A stretch of 60,962 nt of DNA, the filler included, from Rhabdomonas costata (taxonomy: Eukaryota): NCBI GenBank assembly GCA_019059605.1. It is 15 parts of 15 records of this genome, joined end to end, with 100 filler letters (N's around TTAATTAATTAA, not from the genome) between each part and the next. Parts side by side here need not be neighbours in the genome. Positions count along the whole stretch, not along the records: positions 24,899 to 28,811 come from JAHMHO010000447.1; 14 more parts are not named here. One strand, written 5' to 3'. Numbering within the stretch: position 1 is the first letter of the stretch; the number at the start of each line of letters is the position of its first letter. Below are positions 24,794-56,000 of the stretch, piece by piece. A program made the translations under genes and the position numbers. A model generated the notes under the pieces. That model was not told the DNA's origin. It did no database searches and worked only from the letters and a program-made list of their open reading frames with translations.

Positions 24794-25425
24794 CACACNN
24801 NNNNNNNNNNNNNNNNNNNNNNNNNNNNNNNNNNNNNNNNNNTTAATTAATTAANNNNNNNNNNNNNNNNNNNNNNNNNNNNNNNNNNNNNNNNNNNNTT
24901 ATTCTAAGCGCGTGATCAACATATTTTAATCAACAAGAAGAAGAAGAAAGGGGTTGAAAAGGGGATGCATAGTACCCCTTGCTTATGTTCAGGAAGTGTG
25001 GGCTGTGGGGCGGCCCAAGATCCCAGGCGCTTGTTCCTTTCTCTCTCTCGCAACCTCACCCCACCTCGCACATTCGTCGCTCCCCGGCTTGCTCGCTGAC
25101 CTTGTCATGCCTTTGTTGCGCGAAGAGCCCCCTTTACCCGTTCCAAGGCTCCAGGTCTTGTCATGTAGTTCAACATAGCTAATGATGGTGAGATCGGTAA
25201 AGCCAAACATTCACTCTCCGTTGCCACTGTTGGAACCCCGTTTGTGCGGGGGTGGTTATCGTGATCTGTTTCGTCATCTTCACATTCACTTTCTCCCCTT
25301 TTTTAGGCTGCAGAGACCGCAGACATTCGAACCCTCTGTCTGTCTCTCCTGGTGGTATTTCTTCTTTCTGTACAAGCTTTCCAAGCGTTTCAGTGTTCGG
25401 TTCGTTTTCTTCTGTGACACGGAAC

Positions 25426-28400
25426 ATGGCCGAGGCCGACACAATTATTTTGCTCCACCTCCGCTCCGCGGGGGTTTCGCTACCCCCTGAAGTGCTTTCG
25501 GTGGAAGACCTGGGCAGCGTGCAGTTCTACCGCGCCTGCCTTGCATGTGCTCGGGCCCTGCGGCCGGAGTCCTCTGCGGAGATTGCCCGGGAGTTGCCCC
25601 AGTCGGCCACCTCTCGCGTCATGGCGTGCACGTCCCTTGCTAAGGTTTGGCACTGGTCAGCCGCACTTATGCACACTTAAGAATAACTGCCTTTTTTTGC
25701 GTTCAGAGAGACCCCAGAGAGCAAAATCCCCAGCCTCAACAAACAAAACGAAAAAACGCAATTTGAACAGCAGTACAAAGTGCAGTTTCGGCTGAGGAGC
25801 ACAGCAGTCACTTTTCACTTTATGGAAAGACAGGAAGAAGACGTCATTGCCAGGTCGGGTGTGGCACGCACTCAAGGTGCGGAGGAAAACCACATTTCAG
25901 GGGACGCACACACATCACACACACACACATTCGTGGAATTTGAACAAAAGATGGGGTCAAAAGGAGATCCTGCTTCCCTAGTACTTGTACAGTGTTTGTT
26001 GTAGTCGGGCACCGCAGGAGCCGGTAGCACCATACACTTTGTTCGGTAATCCATCTCCTTGTTCCGAATGCACACGGGGATGGTGCTGGGTTCCCTCAGA
26101 TTATCAAGGACTGTGGGTATCCCGCTGAGGTGGGATTCAACACGTTTCTGTACGCCACGGCGGGGGAGATGCGGCAGGTGCTCCGCTTCCTCACCCAAAA
26201 AATGGCCTCCGCGGCCCACGACTGTCGCGCCCTCGAGAGCGAGCCCTCCCTGGCAGGCGCCCAGAGCGTTCTGCTCAGAGGTCCCATTTCCCCGCAGCTG
26301 TGGGCTCGAGGGTAGAGATAAGCATTGTAATAAGCTCTCAAAATTTTCAGGGGGTGCTACCAGCCTCTCATCTCATTCAAAGCGGTCTGACTTGTGGAGC
26401 AAGAGGCATGGCCCAAACCTTTTCCACGGACATCCGCGCAGGCGTTCCTTGTTGATCCTCTTTCGTGCTTCTGCTCTGCTTTCACACTTTGAGCAAGGAT
26501 CCGATTGAAAACGGGATGCGGGCTCACCCAGGCTTCTTCTGGGTTCCTTCTGGTAACACACAGCCCTGCGCAGTGTGGAAGAGGTGTACCTCACGTTCTC
26601 CGAAAAGCGGGGCAAGGCTCCCAGTCGCCTGGGCCTGGTAATATCTGTGCTGCTGTTTGCTTCCGGTGATCGGTGGTTACAAAGCTCTCATCCTAATTTG
26701 CGGTAGGGTACTCCAATGGGAGGAGCAAGGGTGCTGCGAAATGGCTTTTGATGGGCTGCCTTTCAGGCCTCATTTATATGCCGTGCCAAGATGAGTTCGG
26801 TGCTTTGTAGCACCCGAATATATGCTATTCGACGTATTCGAGATGCTTCTTTCTTTGAGGTGGATGGTATGTGTGGTGTTCAGAGCTGACGGAGCGGCGC
26901 TATGAACCAACAAAACTTTTTTCCGGTTAACTTTGCAGGAAGTGACGGCACCCTTCCAGCCCCCCCTGCTGGACCCCGTGGTGCACAGGGCAAGTCCTGT
27001 GGGGTGGGGCCATAGTTTTGAGCACTGGACCTTAAATATGGAGTCGAGCCGATTTCGGTGCCCTGACAGCATCCGTACCAGTAGTTTGTTTGACAACCAG
27101 CTCATGTCACATGTTTGTGTGCGAAAGAAAAGGAAGGAGAAGGAAAAAAAAACCGGAAAAGAAATGTGTCCTGGTCAAGACGCGCGCAGCCCATGGGTTT
27201 TCGAGCAATACTAGGTGCGGCGGATTGCCGGCTCTCATAACAGACCAGTATTAACCCTCCTCGCAACGAAAGTCAGTCTTCCCTTCGTATCGTATTCCGT
27301 GAATTGCGCTGCCCAGTTGTTGAATTTTATGGTCAGGGAGAAGAGGAGGCCGACAACGCCGGTTCCTCCGCGGTGAAGCTTTGGGAGGACGTGTGGGACA
27401 AGGCCTACGAGCAGGACGCCTCTGATGAGGACCCTCTGGTGTGCTTCTCTGGGTTTGAAACGAAACGTTCCTGGTGATGTTTGCAACCAGCTAATTAGAG
27501 CTCGATTTATTGGACAGTCTCCGAATCCTTGGTCCACAATTGCCCATTTCAGGTAAAAATAAGCACTGTGGCCCTAATGACACAGTGAGAGGAAAGCTTA
27601 TACCTCCTGCGCTGCAAGTTTTTTTTTTGCATTGCCCCCCTTCGGCTTGGGTTCGTAAATTACTTTGGGTGCTGTCGTGAACCCTCCGGTGCGTGGGTCA
27701 TGAAATCTCGCAAAGGGGATACGGAAGAGCCACCAAGGGACGCCACTACGGCTGAGGGTGATAGGCCGGAAAAGTTTGGCCCCAAGGACCGGTCCCCGCA
27801 GCGTGAGTATGTTTCAGCTTAGCCCTCTTCCATTACTTCCCCATTGGCTGCTGGGATTTTTTATTACCCCTTCCCTCTTGTTCAGCTTCACCTCGGGGGA
27901 TGGTACGACACCTACACGGGGCAGAACATGCCTGTGGAGCCCATCCTGGAGTGGGTGGGGAACACCGTGGAGAACATCCGAGCGTTGCGGCCGCGGGACG
28001 TGCTGGAGCTGGTTCGCTTCGCTTGGGTGCTGGGGGTGTTGCAAAAGGTGGCAGGAAAAAAGCCAATGTCCAAGTAACGACAAAGCTTATCGACGTGGTC
28101 GAAGGTCAAGTTGTGCGAAAAGCTGAACAACGTGCTCATAGAGCAACTTGTTTTTGCGTAGCTTCATTGAGCGAGGGAAAAGGTTATGGCAGTTTTGACG
28201 CCTTGATAATAACAGGGCTGCGGGACGGGCCTGCTGCTGTTCCGGTTGGCCCCTCAGTGCAATACCTACTACGGCACGGACATCTCCGGAGAAGGTGTAT
28301 TAGTGTGGATGTGGGCGTAGGCACTTCGGGGAGGGTGCCTTTGGGAATGTGCCGCCGCACCGCATTGAGGTTGCCGTCCCTTTTAGTGCACTTCTGAACT

Positions 28401-28772
28401 TCCATCCTATTGTCTGTAATCTCGGCTGTACTCTCAGTTGTCTGGGGACAGTTTCGGGTAAAATTATGCTCACTTTCCTGTGGTTTTACTGCGGCCTGAC
28501 CGATCCTCACGTCATCCTTGAGCCGGTTCCACCTGGTGCTGCTGCTCAGGAATCCGCTACGTGGCGCGGCAGGTGCAGCGCTTGCAGTGGAGCAACGTGA
28601 GAGTGGCCCAGGGGGGCGCCCATGAGCCCTTCCCCATGGCCCCGGAGGGCGGCAGTAGCCCCCCTCTGTTTGACGTGGTGGTTCTGAATGGGGTGACGCA
28701 GTTCTTCCCCACGGTGGAGTACCTGATGCAAGTCCTGGAGAACGCTGCGAAGGCGCTGAAGCCCGAGGGAGG
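25426..28772 (+). CDS. Fusion protein: CCDC22-type N-terminal CH-like domain + NRPS-type SAM-dependent N-methyltransferase domain (3'-truncated by contig end)
   Basis: Eight in-frame exons: 25426-25644, 26100-26280, 26564-26637, 26939-26989, 27337-27438, 27886-28011, 28216-28294, 28550-28772. Exons 1-2 read MAEADTIILLHLRSAGVSLPPEV...LAKIIKDCGYPAEVGFNTFLYATAGEMRQVLRFL (CCDC22-like). Exons 5-8 read WEDVWDKAY...DPLLHLGGWYDTYTGQNMPVEPILEWVGNTVENIRALRPRDVLELGCGTGLLLFRLAPQCNTYYGTDIS...FDVVVLNGVTQFFPTVEYLMQVLENAAKALKPEG (NRPS nMT-like). Confidence 0.85.
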
Positions 28773-29000
28773 GTATCTTCTGCATGTGTACCACTCCTTT
28801 CTCCACCCCCCNNNNNNNNNNNNNNNNNNNNNNNNNNNNNNNNNNNNNNNNNNNNTTAATTAATTAANNNNNNNNNNNNNNNNNNNNNNNNNNNNNNNNN
28901 NNNNNNNNNNNGGGTGTTGGGGGACTGTGTGTTTCTCGTACGTGGTTTTGGATGGAACCGTTGCTCTTCACTCAGGAGTTGAGGATAGGAGAGGAAGAAG

Positions 29001-29712
29001 ATGCAGTTATTTGTCAAGACCTTGACCGGGAAGACTGTCGCCATAAATGTTTGTTCTGTTAGACCCTTCAGATTATGATCCTCACGATTTATTGCGATTG
29101 CCCTTTGATACTGCGTTTTTTCTCAGGCGGATGGGAAAGATTCTGTTGCGGATGTCAAGTCAAAGATTTTATCGCTGGAGGGGATCCCGGAGGACCTCCA
29201 GTGTTTGATTTTTGGTGGGAAGCAGCTCCTCGATGAGAGGTTTCATGCGTTTGCTGCGTCTTACTATTTTTGTTTTTGGTTGTCTAAGTCTCTGCGGTGC
29301 TTATTGTCGTTCAAAGCACGCTGGAGGAAAGCGGCGTGGAGCAGGAGTGCATCCTGAACCTGACAGTTCGCCTGCTTGGAGGTGGAGGCAAGAAGAAGAA
29401 GAAGAAGGTTTACACCAAGCCCAAGAAGAACAAGCATAAGAAGAAGAAGACACCTTTGGCGGTGCTGAAGTTCTACAAGGTCGACGACGATGGCAATATT
29501 ACTCGCACCCGCATCGAGTGTCCTCATCCAGGTCGTTGGATTCTGTTTTCTTTTTCCACTTAGTGGTGTTCCATATGAGCCGCGCAGGTATGACGGGCAT
29601 ATGCTGCTGTGTTTTCACAGACTGCGGTGCTGGGGTGTTCATGGCCGCCCACAAGGACAGGCAGTACTGCGGCAAGTGCGCGTTGACCTATGTCTTCCAA
29701 AAGGAGGAATAA
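29001..29712 (+). CDS. RPS27A: Ubiquitin-like domain fused to 40S ribosomal protein S27a (eS31)
   Basis: Exons 29001-29048, 29127-29239, 29317-29531, 29621-29712: [12 protein letters not shown]...[17 protein letters not shown]...[40 protein letters not shown]...[29 protein letters not shown]. Confidence 0.97.
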
Positions 29713-30548: not shown

Positions 30549-32906
30549 TGTGACCAGAGAAAGACAGCTCATTTAGGTGTGGCTAGAGAAGGTGTGGAGC
30601 AATCCAGATGAGAAGAGAGAGGTAATATGATGAGAGAAGGGAAGCAAAGGATGCAAGCAAGGAAGAGTGCAGTGAGGGAAGGCGTGGATTCCAGAGTGGA
30701 TAAGACCAAAAGAGGTAAGGGTAATTACAATGGAGGTTAGAGAAGAGAGTTTTGTCTGAGTTTGTTTTCAGCAGGATTCGAAGGAGAACTACGGCAGGCC
30801 AGCGAGAAGAAGAAGCCCATGAAGAACAAGGCCGCCGACAGTCAAGGAGATCAAGCAAGTGGGCAGAGAGAGCGAGGAAGGAAAACACGACCGACGAAAA
30901 AGGAGTGAGCGCCAGAGAGGNNNNNNNNNNNNNNNNNNNNNNNNNNNNNNNNNNNNNNNNNNNNNNNNNNNNNNNNNNNNNNNNNNNNNNNNNNNNNNNN
31001 NNNNNNGGAAAACCCGACCGACGAAAAAGGAGTGAGCGCCAGAGAGGTTGCCCCTTTTTCGTATGTTGCGTAACTGCATGTGGTGTGGTGTGTTTCTGCG
31101 CGGGTTTTGGGGGGAAATCTCTGTGAACGTTTCGGTGGGATTGTGGTTGTGCCGCCGCTCCCTTCGGAAAGCCAAAGAGGAAGGAGGTTAGTGCGCATTT
31201 TGGAGGTACAGTAGCATTGGAATTGCTACTGGCACGCAGGCGGCCATTTCACCCCAAGTCCCCCCTCCGAGTTTGGCGAAGCGAGGCGGTGAGGCAGAAG
31301 ACCCCCCCTCGAAGAATTAGTCCCAGCTGCGGAGTCCGCAGGAGAAGTTTGAAGCGCCAGGTGCGCAAGCAAGTGAGGTTGTTAAGTGGAAGGCGGTTTA
31401 GTCCCCTTCCGAGTGTTTCTGGTCGAAGCGAAGGCTGTCAAGTCCCCTTCAAAGTGAGGCGCGGCGCGAGGTCGGGGGATTTTGACGAATTAAGACGGGT
31501 TGCGGAGCGAAGGTGGTTAAGTCACCTTCGTAGGAGTTTGAGAAGCGACCGAGAGGGTGTGACGGAGTGGCAGTTTGCGACCGAGAGTCGTCGAACAAGA
31601 GTCCACAGTCTTGGGCAGCTGCGAGGAGTGGTTGCGGCCAGGCTCTACCCGGCCCTCTGCGAAGCGAGGCCAAACCGGGGGAAAAGTCTCCTCACCTAGT
31701 TGAGTTGACAGCGCTCACAAAGCGAACGTTTTGTCGAGAGGGACCACGGAGAGGAGCGGATCGAGTGGGCTACGCGGGGAAGTCGCAAGAGCCACGTAAT
31801 TGGTCCGAGCCCGCCGTGCCGTCTGACACTCAGAGATGGCCTGATGGTGTAATTCGCCATGCGTGTTCGCGGCCGACGCCTAATAATTCCACCATGCGTT
31901 ACATTATCCCAAGATCCTGCTCTTACAACTCATTTCCTTCTTAATGCTAGGCTGAAACATCTATCGCTTTTGCCTCTGTTTCCGCGGAACTTCAACTGCC
32001 ACCTCCGAGCCTCTTAATCCACTTCATCGTCTCCGATAAAACCACCACTTCCTTTACAGTTGGCTCATGGCATCTGTGGTACTGCTATGGTTTATCTAAC
32101 TCAACCTCTTTATCTGGCATTTCCTCGTATTCAAAATCATCTTCTTTCACGTCTATATGAAATTCTGAATGTCATTATGTAATCACTGGACCAATTGCCT
32201 AATCTTATTCTTCTTTTTCAACCAAGGTTCCTACTTCCGCTTGAATCTCCTTCCTCTTCGCTTGGAATAGGGATTTTAGCACATTCCTCATGCGCTCTCC
32301 GCGCAGCTCACTTTCTCACCATCGGACTCACTGTGTGAGAGTCTTTTTCTACAACTGGAGTCCTCAATATTGATCTGTGAGATATGCCGGAGTGACTTCC
32401 ATCCTGACCGACAATCTTCCTCCGACACATATCAGGTGATGATTCCACCGGTCCCTACTCTGCTCCATCTCCATCATCTCTACAACCACATTCACATCCA
32501 TCTCCAATACCCCGTGTCCTTCCTCTTCTTCTTCGTTTTCAGACACCATACACATTTGACCTAACACCCTTCTCTTATAAGTAAAAATATCAACTCGAGT
32601 GAATAACTCAATGTGCTATCCCTCTCACTTCCTATGTCACATCAAGCACAACGTGCTATCCTTGATCTTCTTTATAATTGTGAATGGCATTTGGCCTGCC
32701 TTTGGCATCATAGTCCACAAACCTTCAGCGGTAATGCCTGTTCTTGCTTATAAGCACTTTCTGACCACAACAAAACTTAAAAAACCTTGGACTGGTGTCT
32801 GGGATTCCTGAAATACTACCAGTACTTCCCAATAGCCTCCTCCAATGTCTTGGAACGCTTGGCCTGTATGTCACTTTCAAGGCCACTCACAAAAAGATAC
32901 AACAAA
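30549..32906 (-). mobile_element. Probable decayed Ty3/gypsy-like LTR retrotransposon 3' end (integrase tail remnant, purine-rich tract, LTR)
   Basis: The minus strand carries broken KFCCGQKVLISK and MPKAGQMPFTIIKKIKDSTL (~32778-32649), resembling the F.VG..VL / GPF.I integrase C-terminal motifs. A purine-rich stretch precedes TGTAAC at 31903, and a candidate LTR end GTCACA lies at 30549. No splice-type exons were found. Confidence 0.45.
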
Positions 32907-42600: not shown

Positions 42601-43273
42601 CGTGTGAGGTACCCTCGCCCATATTGACAATTCATCGCTATTGACAAAGGCAATGAAATGTTGGATTCCATTTTTGCTGTCAGAAAATGGTTTCAGAAAT
42701 GGGTAGGCAGAGGGGCTTGGTGCTTGTACTGAAAGAGATTAGTTTGCCCTGGTCTTGCGGAGGAAAGGAAGTCCTCAAAATAGAATGCAGGCACAAAAGA
42801 TGTAGACAAAGGGCACGTTGCGTGGCAAAGACTGGGGAATGTAAACGACGCAAACGGAAATCACACAAACATTGCCTGTACAGCGGTGCTTGGCAGAATA
42901 TCACGCACAGTACAAAGGTACAAAGCAGGATATTGCACACATAAACTGGAAAGACGGTGCACACTAACAGAGGCAAACACGTGGCTGTCAAACCGGATTT
43001 ACCATCAGGCGCAAGCGGAAAAACAAGGCAGGTGGCGTGTAAACGTAGTGGTCGCGTGGGATTCACAGAATTCAGTGCCACCAGCCATAAGGGATTGGCG
43101 TGTTTGTAGTGGCAGAACCATAACGGATGATTTTCTCCAGAAAACGTATTTCAGTCCATGTCGTCTGTGTTGAGATAAGCCTCTTTTTTGAGCTTCTATT
43201 GTACAAACATCTTTTCCATTAAGGGCTCCGTCTGACTCGCCTCAGTTGTTCGAACACCTTCGAATCAACCATA

Positions 43274-44680
43274 ATGGACCAGTGCTCTCACACAACCGCC
43301 GAGCTGATAACCATGCTTCAGAGGCAGTTGGCCTCTGAAGTCGCGGAGTCAGAACGCCAGAAGGATCACAATCGTCGTCAACTTGCCGAAGAGCGAGCTC
43401 AGCTCGAAGAGAGTCGTCAAAAGCTTCAGGATGAGGTTTTTCAGGAGCGAGCCCAGCTTGCGCGCCACCGCCAAAGGCTTGAAGAGGGGGTTGAAAAGGA
43501 GCTCACCGAGCTCCGCCACAGGCTGCGGGAAGAACTCGCCGATGAACGGGCACTGCTCTCGAGTCAGCGAGCGCAACTTGTTGAGATCCGGCAAAAGCTT
43601 CAGGAAGACGTATTACAAGAGAGAGCCCAGCTTGCGCGCCATCGCCAGGTGCTCCAAGAGGACGCCGAGAAAGAGCTTGCCGAGATGCGTCAGAATTTGC
43701 AGGACCAGTTCTCGGTGGAGCGAGCGCAGCTCTCTATTCAGCGGCAGAAGCTGGAGGAGACCGCTGCAGAAAAGAACGCGGAGCTCTTGAGAGATCGGCT
43801 TCGGCTAGAGGATAATAGAAAGGCGTTTTCGGACGAGTGCGCCAGGATGCAGGCGCTGACTCACCCAGGCGATATTGTGGAGATCAATGCTGGGGGAAAG
43901 GTCTTCACCACTGAGCGCAACACATTGACACGATACCCGGAGTCCTTGCTCGGGATTCTCTTCAGCGGACGCTGGGAAAGCTCCGTCGCAAAGGATAAGG
44001 AAGGCCGAGTTTTCCTGGACGTGAACCCCACACTGTTCGAGAATGCTTTTGAGATGCTTCGGAAGAAAGCAATTGGTCGTCGTGAAATCCCCTGCAGTGT
44101 CCCCACAATGACTCCTGAGGATAAGGCTGACTTTGAGGATTTAGCCATGTACTTGGGCGTGGCTGATGTCCTTCTCATGGAGCCCTTGGCCAGCTTCGAG
44201 TTCAACTTTCTCCGGGGTGTTGTTGCCACTCGGCAAGGCAAGGGAGTGAAGTCAACCGCTACGCATTCCAATTTCGACTCTTGCGCCGTCGGTGCCACTG
44301 TGCTTCCAGCAGTTTGCCAGTGGAATGTCAAGATTCACGCCCTGCGGAACAACTTCTGGGTACACCTGGGAGTGATCCATAACCGCAGCCCCGGTCGCGC
44401 GTGCAACAACGACCCCACCTGCTACGGGTTCGCGTGCCTGGACCAGACATACCAAGCTGGGGTGATCACTCCGAAGCCCGGTTGGTCGGGTTTTTGCGCA
44501 GGGGATGAAGTATCCTTCGAGCTAAACTCCATTGCGGGTACGCTGACCATGACCCATTGGGGCACCAACTTCCGGCTTACGGGCATGCCCACGTCTGCCT
44601 CGTGGAGGGTGTATGCCAGTCTATATGGAGAAGGTGACGAGATCGAAGTCATTCCTCTACGGACGTCCGAAGAGCTCTGA
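43274..44680 (+). CDS. Intronless coiled-coil + KCTD-type BTB/POZ + SPRY/B30.2-like protein, 468 aa
   Basis: BTB: DIVEINAGGKVFTTERNTLTRYPESLLGILFSGRWE...DKEGRVFLDVNPTLF. C-terminal beta-sandwich pattern: WNVKI...WVHLGVI...YGF...GDEVSFELNSIAGTL...WRVYASLYGEGDEIEV. N-terminal ERAQL repeats. Confidence 0.85.
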   Translation: MDQCSHTTAELITMLQRQLASEVAESERQKDHNRRQLAEERAQLEESRQKLQDEVFQERAQLARHRQRLEEGVEKELTELRHRLREELADERALLSSQRAQLVEIRQKLQEDVLQERAQLARHRQVLQEDAEKELAEMRQNLQDQFSVERAQLSIQRQKLEETAAEKNAELLRDRLRLEDNRKAFSDECARMQALTHPGDIVEINAGGKVFTTERNTLTRYPESLLGILFSGRWESSVAKDKEGRVFLDVNPTLFENAFEMLRKKAIGRREIPCSVPTMTPEDKADFEDLAMYLGVADVLLMEPLASFEFNFLRGVVATRQGKGVKSTATHSNFDSCAVGATVLPAVCQWNVKIHALRNNFWVHLGVIHNRSPGRACNNDPTCYGFACLDQTYQAGVITPKPGWSGFCAGDEVSFELNSIAGTLTMTHWGTNFRLTGMPTSASWRVYASLYGEGDEIEVIPLRTSEEL

Positions 44681-49828: not shown

Positions 49829-50897
49829 GTAGGTGGTTGGGGGTCGCCTACAATGGCTGCGAAAAGGATATTAAGCACATAAAGGGAATGAAATCGGGTC
49901 GAAAGGGTCCTGCTGTCAAGAAAAGGTTACGGGGAGGCAGCCGGGGTAATTGTCGTTTGCATACGTTCAGGTCAGTGAATTCCAGGGCGCAAGGCTGCCG
50001 ACGTTTATATGGCCTGCGTCACCTCAAACGTAAGAGGTGACGGTAGAAGGTCAAAATCAGCTTGAAAACACAAGCACAACCGATATGCACTGGAACCTAG
50101 TTTTTCACCCCACCCCACCCCGTTTTAGCTTCTAAGTCCGAAAACGCCTGATTTAAGCACACTTTTCGAAGTTGTGCCTTTTTGAGGTGACGGGGACAAT
50201 GTTACCAACCTCTCTGCTCCCTGTTCAATGACATCTGGGGGGTTGTTGGGCTGTCATGATGATTTCCGGTGGGTATTACTGAGATCAGGGGAGGTAGATC
50301 AGGTTGTGCGTCTAGTAGCAGGGTTTGAGGACGACTGAAGTGACCCCTGAGCGAGGGATCTTGATCTCGCACAGGGCCAGAGGGGGATGCATGGGTGTGG
50401 GTGCGGGCCCCAGCCCACTTTCAGAAATTTCCTGCCCCGTTCAGTCCCTTCCTGTAATTTGGTTTCAGGTCTTGCGGCTACTCTCATCTCCCAGTGTACT
50501 TTTCACCCGATATGCTCCCGATCCAAATTTTTCAGGAACACCGTAACATGTGCAGTGCACCACCGCCTCAATATTTTATTCGGTGTTTCTTCTCGATAAC
50601 TTTCTCTTTCCTAAGTTGTTACGGTGCCTCTCACTCACAACCGCCTTGGCTGCCTTTCGGCCAAGGCCCTGCCCCCCTTCACCTTTTTTTTTATGATTTT
50701 TATGACACCTTTCTCTCGTTTATCGGGCGTCTTGGGGTACGGCCTTCAGAAAAAGCCTTTTCCAGCTCGCATCAATGCAAAACCGCTGCTTCACACAACC
50801 CTGACTTTTCTCTCAATCCTTTTCCTTTTCCTTTACGACTACTTTCAAGCCAATAGCCGCCGACCTTTCACATGTTTCCTCTTTGCCCCGGAAAAAG

Positions 50898-52929
50898 GTC
50901 TTTGAGCTGCAGGAGGTGACGGAGGAGGAGGCCTTGCTTGGAATGCAGGAGCAGGCCAAGCAGCCCGCCCTAAACGGCCTCTCCCTGCTGGGGCTCTTGC
51001 GCAGCGGCGGGGATGACAACCTTATTCAGAAGCTGCTCTGCGGCCCGGTCGACCCGAACGCTCAGGACGAGGCTGATGGCAGGACGCCTGTGATCGCCGC
51101 AGTGGAGAAGGAGGCGGTGGGAGTGCTGGAGAATCTTCTGGCCAGGACAGCCTTCCCCGTGAATCTTACCCTTGCGGACAATGAGGGCAGGACGCCTCTC
51201 CTCCACGCCATTGGGACGGGCCGAGGGGAGATCTTTACCAGGCTTCTTGAGGCTCAGGCAGACATCAACGCCGAAGACAACAACGGCAAGTGTGGTGTGG
51301 TGTACGCCATTGAGCGTGGTCACGTGGAAATGTTCGAGGAGTTGCTAAAGAGGAACGCTAACGTGGAGAGCCAAGACAAAAATGACAGGTGCGCGCTGAT
51401 GTACGCCATCCAGCACGACCGCATGGAGATGTTCCAAGAGCTGATGAAGAGGAAGCCGAATTTGGAGTGCAGGGACAAGGAGGGCCGGACGGTATTGATG
51501 TACGCCCTGCAGAAGACACGAGCCACGGTATGCCTTCTGTGGTGGCTCTGCCCGCTATGCGCTGACCCCTGACTTCCCTGTCAACTCTAATTCGTAAGTG
51601 TCGAAGTGCGCTCACTATTGCTCTTCTGCGTGCTGCTTCATTTTCTTCGCTTCCGATTCCCATTCCCATTCCCATTCCGCTCGTGGTGCGCCTTTCTCGG
51701 GACCACAGACCTCCGAGGGCACCACCCCAAGGCAAGAGGACTCCCTCGACCCAGGGGCAATTATCGACGTGTTGCTGGCCGCCGGAGCGGACCTCACCGC
51801 GAAGGTCGGTCTGTCGGTCGGTCGGCTGGTTTCGTGAGCAGTTTACTCACGGTGTCGTGAGGCCCCCATTAGTTTCTTTTGCCCACGGTTTGCATGCATC
51901 TGGTTTTAACTGCATGGGCAGTTTCCTGACGCTGTTGTGCCTTGCAAGTTTTTTGCCGTGTTGCACACATCCGTTTTTGACTGAGTAGGACTTGAACGGC
52001 CGCTCGGTGGCGTACTACGCCGCAGGAGGTGGCCACTGGGAGGTTCTCCTCTCAGTGCTGGCCCGAGCCGAAGAGCTGAAGTTGGAGCTCAGTGTTGTAA
52101 GCGACCCCTCTTGCGGGGCAGACACCGTGCTGCACGTCGCGGCACGGAAGGGCGCTCCCGCCGCTGTCATTGAGAGGCTGGTTGCCTTGGGTGCCCCCGT
52201 CACCATCAAGGCATGCCTTGCGTGCTTGCCTGTTTGCTGCCATTATCACATACATATACCCCAACCCTAACAACCGTTAACGCTTGCTTCAAAAAACCGG
52301 CACAATAAGGCGCCCTTCTCCCTCACGCGATCTGATATAAATGTCTTGCACAGTTGGGAAGGGGCCCTACTGTCTTTGCGCTTAAGTGGGGTCCTACGTG
52401 TTTTTCGGGCCGTTGTGGAGATCGCAGGGATGGTCGATGACGCCGTACCCCCAGTCCCCCATTGCAGAGGACGTATCCCATGCACATGTGATTTGGTGGC
52501 TGTGATGACGCCGCCCTCCTGCGAAGAAGAACGGCCTGCTGGAAAGTCTTTTCACTGATTATCTGCAGGCACTTGAGGCACGGTTCCGGTTTGGTTCGCC
52601 CTCCTTCTTCCATATCGCTCTCTGCGCTTTTCGGCAGCGGCCCGCAAGTCAATGGAAGTCGATTTCTAGTGGTACTCCCCATTCCTCCGGAATACGGAAA
52701 AAGCTGTGTGTGTGCTTTGACGTCGGTGTGGTATGTGTGTTGGCAGGACGGTGCGGGGCGTGTGCCGTTGGCGGTGGCCTTGATGGTGTCCCGATGTGAC
52801 GACACGGCAGTGGCGCTGGTGGGCCCCAGCGTGGAGGGTGGGGTGGTGGTGCCCGGGGTCATTGCGGACCCGTCCTCGCAGCGGACATGGGCGCAGCTCG
52901 CGCTTGGGCTGCCCAGGACCTGCGCCGCA
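50898..52929 (+). CDS. Ankyrin-repeat protein (about 8 repeats, partial)
   Basis: Phase-0 exons 50898-51527, 51709-51804, 51989-52210 (GC donor) and 52747 to ~52929. Repeats include DGRTPVIAA, EGRTPLLHAI, EGRTVLMYAL, NGRSVAYYAA, DTVLHVAARKG and AGRVPLAVAL. Confidence 0.93.
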
Positions 52930-53054: not shown

Positions 53055-56000
53055 GTTCCAGCGGGGCAAGGCACGGGCTCTGGGCTTCCCGCAACGCAGT
53101 ACGAACCTGCAGGGCATGGCCCTCCTGTGAGTCCATCGGTCGGGGTCGAGGTGTTTGCCCCGCCGCTGCAGTAAAATGACGCAGAGCACAGCCCCGTGGG
53201 AGACGAAAGCCCCTCGCTGGCGCAGAACGACCCAGCAGAACAGGCCATACACTCCGCCTGCGACGCCAGCCCGGTGCGGTTGCTGAAGCTCCCAACAGCG
53301 CAGGGGTAGAGCCGAGCCTGGGTGGTGCCATTCGGACAGAAGTAGCCTGCTGGGCATATCTCGGGCTGCGTGTAATTCTGGCCGTTACACTTGTTCGCGT
53401 TGTCGCAGAAGTAGCGTGCAGGGCAGACTTTGCATACGCTCTGCCCAGCCTGGTCCTGATAGCTTCCCGAGGGGCAAACCACAGGTGTTGCACTCCCCGA
53501 AGGACACACAAGACCAAATGGGCATGGCAGGGAGGGATACACTGTGCCCGAGGGGCAGTAGAAGCCAGCCGTGCACGAGGAGACAGGTACACTCATGCCT
53601 ACCTGGTCGCAGTAGTAGCCCCCGGTGCAGTTCACACATGAGGACAGGGACCACGTCCCATTGGCACCGTTGAAGGTTCCCTTCGGGCACGGCGTGGGGG
53701 CTCCAGATCCTTTCGGGCAGTACGCCCCGACAGGGCAAAGATTTCCGCTCACCCCGTCCGTGGGAGTCTTCGTCGAAGCTCCTCCAGCGCAGTAGTAGCC
53801 TTGGTCACACACATCGGTGGGCTGAGAAAGCCCGGTGGTGCTGCAGTAATATCCTGCCGAGCATGAGCTGCACTGGCTCGAGGTCTGCAGACCGCTTTGG
53901 TTGCTGTAGGTTCCCACCGGGCAACGGAACTGCGCGGCGTACCGCGTACCATTCGGGCAGAAGAAGCCTGGAGGACACTGCCGTGGCTGGGTGGCATTCG
54001 TTGTGGCGTTGCACTTGTCATCGAGGTCGCAGAAAGAGCCCGCTGGACACGCGGAGCACTTGTACAAACCAGCGGCGTTGGAATACGTCCCACTGGGGCA
54101 GGCCACAGGAATTCCTGTGCCGCTGGGGCACACAAAACCACTCGGGCAGACATAGGCGGGTGGGCGAGGTGAGCTCCCTCCAGCAGGACAATAGTACCCA
54201 GGGTAGCACACAGAGTTGGGTGCTGTCAACCCCGCTGCCGTGCACGCCGCACCTGCCGTACAGGCAGCGCAGTCCGAGACGTTTGCCCCACCTGCAGCGG
54301 AATTGAAGGTCCCAGCCGGGCACGGCCAAGGAGCAGAGCTGCCTTGCGGGCAGTATGATCCCGCAGGACACACATCTCCAGTAATCCCGTCCGTGGGGGT
54401 TGCGCTGGCAGCCCCACTCACGCAGTAGTACCTTGGGCTGCAAAGTCCTCTGGGCTGGCTAAGCCCGGGCTGATCACAGTACATCCCTGGGAGACACGTC
54501 GTGCACTGCGACACCGCCGATAGCTCGGTGAGGTTGGAGAAGGTGCCGTTCGGGCAGGCATATTGTGTCGCCGATGCCGTCCCCGCAGGACAGTAATAGC
54601 CAACAGGACAGGACTGGGGCTGGATGTACACGGGACCACTGCCCTGCACAGGAAGGTCACAATAGAATCCCGCCAAGCACGACTTGCAGCTCGAGGCGCC
54701 TGTGGTGTCCTGGTAAGTCCCGCGCTGGCAAGGCTGAGGCACAGCACTGCCCACAGGACACTGGAAGCCAAGCGAGCATGGGAGAGAGGGATAGCTGGTT
54801 CCATTGGGGCAGTAAAATCCCGCCAGGCATTGTGCCGTGGGCTGCACCAAGCCCAAACCGTCACAGTACATCCCAGAAGGGCACAACTCGCAGTAGTAGC
54901 CCCCGGTGCAGTTCACACATGAGGACAGGGACCACGTCCCATTGGCACCGTTGAAGGTTCCCTTCGGGCACGGCGTGGGGGCTCCAGATCCTTTCGGGCA
55001 GTACGCCCCGACAGGGCAAAGATTTCCGCTCACCCCGTCCGTGGGAGTCTTCGTCGAAGCTCCTCCAGCGCAGTAGTAGCCTTGGTCACACACATTGGTG
55101 GGCTGAGAAAGCCCGGTGGTGCTGCAGTAATATCCTGCCGAGCATGAGCTGCACTGGCTCGAGGTCTGCAGACCGCTTTGGTTGCTGTAGGTTCCCACCG
55201 GGCAACGGAACTGCGCGGCGTACCGCGTACCATTCGGGCAGAAGAAGCCTGGAGGACACTGCCGTGGCTGGGTGGCATTCGTTGTGGCGTTGCACTTGTC
55301 ATCGAGGTCGCAGAAAGAGCCCGCTGGACACGCGGAGCACTTGTACAAACCAGCGGCGTTGGAATACGTCCCACTGGGGCAGGCCACAGGAATTCCTGTG
55401 CCGCTGGGGCACACAAAACCACTCGGGCAGACATAGGCGGGTGGGCGAGGTGAGCTCCCTCCAGCAGGACAATAGTACCCAGGGTAGCACACAGAGTTGG
55501 GTGCTGTCAACCCCGCTGCCGTGCACGCCGCACCTGCCGTACAGGCAGCGCAGTCCGAGACGTTTGCCCCACCTGCAGCGGAATTGAAGGTCCCAGCCGG
55601 GCACGGCCAAGGAGCAGAGCTGCCTTGCGGGCAGTATGATCCCGCAGGACACACATCTCCAGTAATCCCGTCCGTGGGGGTTGCGCTGGCAGCCCCACTC
55701 ACGCAGTAGTACCTTGGGCTGCAAAGTCCTCTGGGCTGGCTAAGCCCGGGCTGATCACAGTACATCCCTGGGAGACACGTCGTGCACTGCGACACCGCCG
55801 ATAGCTCGGTGAGGTTGGGGAAGGTGCCGTTCGGGCAGGCATATTGTGTCGCCGATGCCGTCCCCGCAGGACAGTAATAGCCAACAGGACAGGACTGGGG
55901 CTGGATGTACACGGGACCACTGCCCTGCACAGGAAGGTCACAATAGAATCCCGCCAAGCACGACTTGCAGCTCGAGGCGCCTGTGGTGTCCTGGTAAGTC

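Follow-up and report, generated by a model that had tools for sequence, protein, structure and literature searches.

A candidate fusion gene joining a CCDC22-type head to a nonribosomal peptide synthetase methyltransferase domain in Rhabdomonas costata

Introduction

Can the methyltransferase domain of a nonribosomal peptide synthetase (NRPS) be carried in a eukaryote outside its adenylation domain, beneath the N-terminal head of CCDC22? This question is raised by a predicted eight-exon gene of Rhabdomonas costata (assembly GCA_019059605.1), in which a domain of the type found at the N-terminus of CCDC22, a subunit of the CCC/Commander complex, is followed by a short linker and by an NRPS-type methyltransferase (M) domain. 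A full M domain is ~400 residues long, and in an NRPS it methylates the aminoacyl thioester held on a carrier domain. The gene was found in a stretch of 60,962 nucleotides (the window), which consists of about 15 contigs, each of ~4 kb, joined by N44-TTAATTAATTAA-N44 spacers. It is confined to one 3.9-kb contig (24899-28811, JAHMHO010000447.1), the end of which cuts off its 3' end. Since the joined contigs need not be neighbours in the genome, the neighbouring stretches of the window are uninformative on the synteny of this gene. As assembled, the contig is most simply read as one gene comprising a CH head, a short linker and an M domain, with its 3' end lying beyond the contig. If real, this fusion is a new domain architecture made of known domains, and on the sequence evidence we consider the chances about even that it represents a real, translated gene.

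Results

Two domains are encoded on this contig, the CCDC22-type head first and the M domain second, in one open frame that runs through eight exons of exon-like composition. When these exons, all on the plus strand, were joined by their coordinates, a model of 351 codons without a stop was obtained, confirming the unbroken frame described in the initial annotation. All seven splice acceptors read CAG, and the donors are GT in six cases and GC in exon 4.

The head is encoded by the first two exons. Exon 1 (25426..25644) contains the start codon, which is the first in-frame ATG downstream of the preceding stop, and the first 73 residues of the NN-CH domain, matching positions 1-73 of the Pfam profile CCDC22_N (PF21674, E 2.6e-12). 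Exon 2 (26100..26280) encodes the rest of this domain (positions 74-108, E 1.5e-8), followed by a tail of ~25 residues. The two exons together span positions 1-108 of the 109 in the profile, and the NN-CH head, at about residues 1-108 of the predicted protein, is complete. The best solved-structure match of exon 2 is to residues 76-114 of human CCDC22 (8f2u_T, E 3e-5). As in CCDC22, an NN-CH-type domain starts from the initiator Met and covers the whole profile. No match was obtained in word-index searches with exon 1 (proteins of at least 129 aa) and exon 2 (longer proteins), nor in a metagenome scan with exon 1. A protein atlas search with exon 1 returned NN-CH families only (scores ≤0.85), and a methyltransferase was listed in none of the NN-CH clusters returned. 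About 120 nt 5' of the start codon, a pyrimidine tract of 15 nt followed by AG was read by eye at 25290-25306 (+); it looks like a 3' splice acceptor or a spliced-leader acceptor for the 5' untranslated region.

The M domain begins at about residue 186 of the predicted protein and is encoded by the last four exons. Exon 5 (27337..27438) carries an acidic linker and then the start of the M domain (W..VWDKAY ... DEDP). Exon 6 (27886..28011) continues with the N-terminal extension of the domain (GW.DTYTG ... EW) as far as the VLEL of motif I for binding S-adenosylmethionine (SAM). Exon 7 (28216..28294) encodes the SAM-binding motif I (GCGTG) and the acidic post-I residue (GTD.S), and exon 8 (28550..28772) encodes the core of the domain up to the L.P.G motif, with the frame open to the contig end at 28811. 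The Pfam profile Methyltransf_12 matches exon 7 (positions 4-29, E 5e-5) and exon 8 (positions 41-96, E 1e-5). In addition, exons 6 and 8 match residues 524-562 (E 1.3e-3) and 623-658 of chain 5wmm_A, labelled 'NRPS', which we take to be the TioS A-M-A didomain; a PDB search with exon 5 alone gave no match. In a local phmmer comparison, the joined exons 5-8 (model residues ~170-351) aligned to bacterial NRPS M domains without loss of colinearity at any of the three junctions, with top scores of 165.9 bits (P0046) and 155.1 bits (P0122). The 5/6, 6/7 and 7/8 splice junctions are therefore confirmed by homology. The exon borders were also seen in tblastn searches with 10 bacterial NRPS proteins: on exon 7 all 10 queries start at 28216, with identities of 57-76%, and on exon 6 all 10 end at 28011 and seven start exactly at 27886. 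At exon 5 the matches start between 27310 and 27382, five of them within 27310-27349.

The sources of these relatives are bacterial throughout the matches inspected. An exhaustive HMMER search with exon 8 among 1.84 billion representative proteins gave 151 proteins at E<=1e-3. Most of the 150 matches listed are longer than 1,000 residues, with a maximum of 7,929, and all 16 matches checked by name or domains are bacterial NRPS or polyketide synthases (PKS). The ten named matches likewise all come from bacteria, namely Chloroflexi/Chloroflexota, Herpetosiphonaceae, Symploca and other metagenome-assembled genomes. The highest local identity to exon 8 was 64%, on an 87-aa fragment that shares motifs with the bacterial NRPS matches, and a metagenome scan with the same exon returned one locus (L001) at 49% identity.

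The conserved positions of the domain are largely retained. The model retains 30 of the 38 columns for which conservation among 178 bacterial M segments is at least 85%, and seven of the eight changed positions are conservative substitutions. The residues kept include E250, G252, G254 and G256 of motif I, the acidic post-I residue D273, and W191, G214, W215, Y219, P225 and W232 of the N-terminal extension. This extension (W...Y...DP...GW.SSYTG...EW), which is specific to M domains, is present, exons 5-6 aligning to it in P0046 and P0122 and exon 6 in 5wmm_A. The class I SAM-binding core is also present (motif I GxGxG, the acidic post-I residue, FD..LN.V.Q.FP and L.PGG). The contig carries the N-terminal, SAM-binding half of the M domain only; as far as it extends, the domain looks intact, SAM-binding core included.

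What normally surrounds these two domains is missing from the contig. Pfam profiles were run on 78 open reading frames (ORFs) of at least 35 aa from both contig strands, of which two matched CCDC22_N, two matched methyltransferase families, and none matched AMP-binding or the CCDC22 coiled-coil family. There is no adenylation-domain or coiled-coil sequence on this contig. The tblastn matches of the 10 NRPS proteins fall on exons 5-8 only, and no further NRPS-like exon was found below E 0.1 on the other contigs of the window. In five of the six best homologues, AMP-binding lies N-terminal to the methyltransferase; the remaining one, a partial protein, has AMP-binding_C immediately before its methyltransferase. 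Moreover, an A8-type motif occurs within the 75 residues upstream in 159 of 174 homologue M segments. No such motif was found in the three frames of 24899-27336, nor any adenylation sequence within the 2.4 kb preceding the M domain. On its N-terminal side, the M domain is thus not inserted in an adenylation domain as NRPS M domains are (between A8 and A9). Conversely, none of 149 matched library proteins aligns to model residues 1-133.

These results agree with the domain arrangement put forward in the initial annotation. Its CCDC22-like N-terminus with a CH-type domain is borne out by the CCDC22_N and 8f2u_T matches, and its NRPS-type methyltransferase by Methyltransf_12, 5wmm_A and the 165.9-bit alignment; the motif strings that it quoted all occur in the translation, and the profile search gave both matches, as had been expected. 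The CH domain does stand where five of the six homologues have AMP-binding, and the stated absence of an intervening coiled coil holds on this contig.

The composition of the exons is uniform across the two halves of the gene. GC content ranges from 0.64 to 0.71 and GC at third codon positions (GC3) from 0.75 to 0.90 in all eight exons, compared with a GC content of 0.47-0.54 in all introns; GC of at least 0.65 is reached in just 0.95% of 2,419 non-exon 51-nt windows. Exon 1 has a GC of 0.65 and a GC3 of 0.75, and exon 2 a GC3 of 0.80. Since the introns and the codon-position GC are alike in the two halves, bacterial contamination is ruled out.

The linker between the two domains is predicted to be ~75 residues long and comprises the tail of exon 2, exons 3 and 4, and the acidic start of exon 5. 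Exon 3 (26564..26637, 74 nt) has a GC of 0.65 and a GC3 of 0.80 in the frame of the model, and it brings exon 4 into frame with exon 2, whose end is in phase 1. The open frame requires the exon 3 acceptor at 26563/26564, the acceptor at 26573/26574 breaking it. Exon 4 (26939..26989, 51 nt) has a GC of 0.71 and a GC3 of 0.88. Its donor is AGG/GCAAGT; in-phase alternatives to its splice sites are a GT donor 9 nt beyond this one (after 26998) and an acceptor at 26960. The 194 candidate internal exons from exon 2 to exon 5 include only two GC-rich islands, exons 3 and 4, and the cluster of candidates with the highest GC is that at exon 4. In each of the two, the frame that the splice sites dictate has the highest GC3 and the lowest GC at second codon positions, matching the domain-bearing exons. 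Exons 3 and 4 are read as coding because their GC, GC3 and frame composition are exon-like. Exon 3 alone gave no PDB match. Neither within exons 3, 4 and 5 nor upstream in the surrounding ORF of each is there an in-frame Met; the ORF around exon 5 (27241-27477) contains no Met at all, and the first in-frame Met of the methyltransferase part falls inside exon 6. The lack of an in-frame start in exons 3-5 adds weight to the reading of a single gene.

Two further candidates for this region were tried and rejected. The first was that exons 3-4 are a decayed segment of the adenylation domain that precedes the M domain. Against a profile of 174 such segments they scored -1.3 bits, and 685 of 1,000 shuffles were as good or better. 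Nine local alignments were also made to P0046, P0122 and P0092. Eight did no better than those of shuffled sequences (830-1,975 of 2,000 as good or better); in the ninth, between the acidic exon 4/5 stretch and P0092, 61 of 2,000 shuffles were as good or better. The second concerned a GC-rich island in intron 5 (27700-27802, +), an ATG-started ORF of 34 codons ending at a GTGAGT donor. As a first exon of the methyltransferase it would not join exon 6 in phase and would need an 83-nt intron, and it has no Pfam match; the island could be an alternative or vestigial exon. An Rfam scan of the whole window gave no match.

Discussion

The predicted protein differs from each of the systems that it resembles. 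According to excerpts of a published account (PMC10187114), the head of human CCDC22 is followed by a long linker, which makes PxxR turns at residues 145-148 and 199-202 and is entwined with the COMMD ring, and then by coiled coils. In the fusion, by contrast, ~75 residues follow the CH domain before the methyltransferase starts, and no coiled-coil match was found on the contig. Only exons 3-4 (42 residues) could correspond to the COMMD-ring linker. At the exon 2/3 junction and in the P-F-Q-P-P of exon 4, the sequence may resemble the start of the human CCDC22 linker, which we mention as an unconfirmed lead only. The M domain shares its N-terminal extension and class I SAM-binding motifs with 5wmm_A, where, however, M lies inside the adenylation domain; the M domain of the fusion has no adenylation sequence in the preceding 2.4 kb. 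The best full-length matches of exons 5-8 are P0046, P0122, P0092 and P0087 (146.7-165.9 bits), NRPS and PKS-NRPS proteins of metagenome-assembled bacteria. Besides AMP-binding, a split AMP-binding_C and PP-binding, all of these proteins contain other assembly-line domains, and none has a CH domain. Unlike these bacterial modules, the fusion gene has spliceosomal introns.

Herein, we propose that the fusion probably arose by exon shuffling, in which an M-domain cassette from an interrupted adenylation domain was placed behind the 5' exons of CCDC22. Under this proposal, a euglenid would express a fusion in which an excised NRPS M domain has been put under the N-terminal head and proximal linker of CCDC22, for which we put the chances slightly short of even. 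The conserved positions suggest that the M domain would bind SAM and transfer a methyl group; since its SAM-binding core looks intact, methyl transfer would be the likely chemistry. The contig lacks the coiled coils entirely and the greater part of the linker that threads the COMMD ring, and therefore the predicted protein would be no normal Commander subunit. Because the head could not then build Commander, its role would be one of docking or localisation. If so, the product would be either a localised stand-alone N-methyltransferase, acting on a protein or small amine at the docking site of the head, or the N-terminal, anchored part of a larger NRPS-like enzyme, with carrier or reductase domains beyond the contig end. 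With 19 NRPS and 14 PKS reported in E. gracilis in the excerpted part of PMC9321709, a euglenid donor of the M cassette is plausible, and an ordinary NRPS gene nearby is plausible as well. Literature searches gave no relevant report of a CCDC22-methyltransferase fusion among the matches listed, none on Euglena with CCDC22, and none on a euglenid nonribosomal peptide with a methyltransferase.

Several observations weigh against a real and expressed fusion. First, no second copy of the architecture, CCDC22 NN-CH plus methyltransferase, was found in the protein-library, protein-atlas or metagenome searches, and no protein nearly identical to the product of exon 8 was present among the 1.84 billion representative proteins. 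Second, the eighth changed position of the M domain (LNGV) has a Gly in place of a Ser that is invariant in 178 of 178 bacterial M segments, and exons 3-4 match no Pfam family. Third, the weak point of the model is the exon 4-5 junction across intron 4, which is predicted from the assembled sequence of a short contig in an assembly that is very fragmented. The initial annotation had stressed the phase compatibility of the splice sites. The frame is indeed open throughout, but phase is weak evidence by itself: when splice sites were defined liberally, 9,157 candidate paths led from exon 2 to exon 5, and 492 of them keep the frame and meet no stop (direct path, 0 of 1; through one internal exon, 20 of 194; through two, 472 of 8,962). 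Provided that exons 1-4 form a unit in any case, exon 4 matches exon 5 in phase by chance in ~1 of 3 cases, and the junction phase alone is worth about 3:1 for the fusion.

One alternative, which we consider unlikely, is that the locus is a real but dead young mosaic, in which the 5' end of a CCDC22 copy came to lie beside an NRPS fragment in a repeat-rich euglenid genome and is untranslated or decaying. The replaced Ser of the LNSV motif and the absence of an orthologue of the architecture in the protein-library, word-index and metagenome searches would both fit such a mosaic. It is also consistent with an M domain that lacks adenylation and thiolation partners, which has no known role in an NRPS, and with the mere ~40 residues left after the CH domain on the CCDC22 side, with which, going by the excerpts of PMC10187114, Commander assembly is impossible. 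On the other side, the 351 codons are without a stop, all seven acceptors and donors are usable, GC3 is strongly exon-like throughout, both linker exons included, and the conserved M positions are kept or conservatively changed in the proportions given above.

Another explanation, which we judge improbable, is an assembly or amplification chimera, in which an ordinary CCDC22 gene (exons 1-4) and an ordinary NRPS gene (exons 5-8) were misjoined within intron 4 (26990..27336, +), the junction between the CCDC22 side and the methyltransferase. An architecture not otherwise known, contigs of ~4 kb in a very fragmented assembly, the many NRPS genes in euglenids (as excerpted from PMC9321709) and a 0/0 phase match that one junction would show by chance about once in three would all fit such a misjoin, and a purine-rich low-complexity tract at ~27124-27165 lies within this intron. 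On the other hand, only a (CA)n run gives 16-mers that the contig has in common with the rest of the window, intron 4 has none in common with it, and no 16-mer occurs twice within the contig itself. The NRPS homology begins at the exon 5 acceptor and not earlier, and intron 4 (GC 0.49) resembles the other six introns in length class and GC. Exons 3-5, moreover, have no in-frame start codon.

Spliced-leader trans-splicing is usual in euglenozoans, and the source organism is euglenid-like. It is nevertheless very improbable that two mRNAs are made here, one for a short CH-only protein, which unspliced exon 2 would give by running into a stop 11 codons on, and one for a methyltransferase that receives its spliced leader at the acceptor of exon 5 or 6, because exon 5 has no in-frame ATG, a start at the exon 6 Met would cost the protein the conserved W...GW.DTYTG extension, whose coding sequence has exon-like GC3, the coding-like exons 3 and 4 would be left without a gene, and the lone ATG-started GC island between them, that at 27700-27802, is out of phase with exon 6 across the 83-nt intron that it would need.

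If the expressed fusion is true, it would mean that an NRPS M domain can persist outside its adenylation host in a eukaryote, that the CCDC22 CH head is usable as a portable module, and that euglenid NRPS genes are a source of domains for exon shuffling. It would also be the first known enzyme with a CCDC22 head and might provide a handle on the binding partner of this head, which in the human CCC map is too flexible to appear (excerpts of PMC10187114). If the locus is a chimera or a dead mosaic, it would call for caution in inferring architectures from 4-kb contigs.

Additional observations

Several other features of the window were recorded. On the next contig, a gene for the ribosomal protein S27a (eS31) lies at 28990-29710 (+), with a divergent N-terminal ubiquitin moiety. 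The middle exon of this gene retains a match to the Pfam ubiquitin family (E 5.4e-9). In the exon with the C-terminal part of ubiquitin, most positions differ from the ubiquitin part of Euglena gracilis eS31, and the S27a part is close. The best solved-structure match of the exon at 29318-29533 is 6zj3_Sf of the Euglena gracilis ribosome, which is not identical to it (102.7 bits, compared with 80.9 for the next match). On this one gene, the source organism is read as euglenid-like though other than E. gracilis, which fits a euglenozoan source.

An 86-N gap at 30921-31006 lacks the TTAATTAATTAA spacer seen at the other joins and is probably a scaffold gap inside one record. At 43223-44677 (+), an uninterrupted ORF of 485 codons contrasts with the intron-rich genes of the window; it has a long, charged, repetitive N-terminus (coiled coil by eye), then BTB_2 (E 3.4e-9) and a C-terminal part. 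A direct repeat with a period of 1,281 bp extends over 53607-55187, its 300-nt copies at 53607-53906 and 54888-55187 being 100% identical, and contains parallel 210-aa ORFs at 53674-54303 and 54955-55584, which have no Pfam match. Finally, a 255-aa ORF at 50805-51569 (+) encodes ankyrin repeats (Ank_2, E 9.3e-28).

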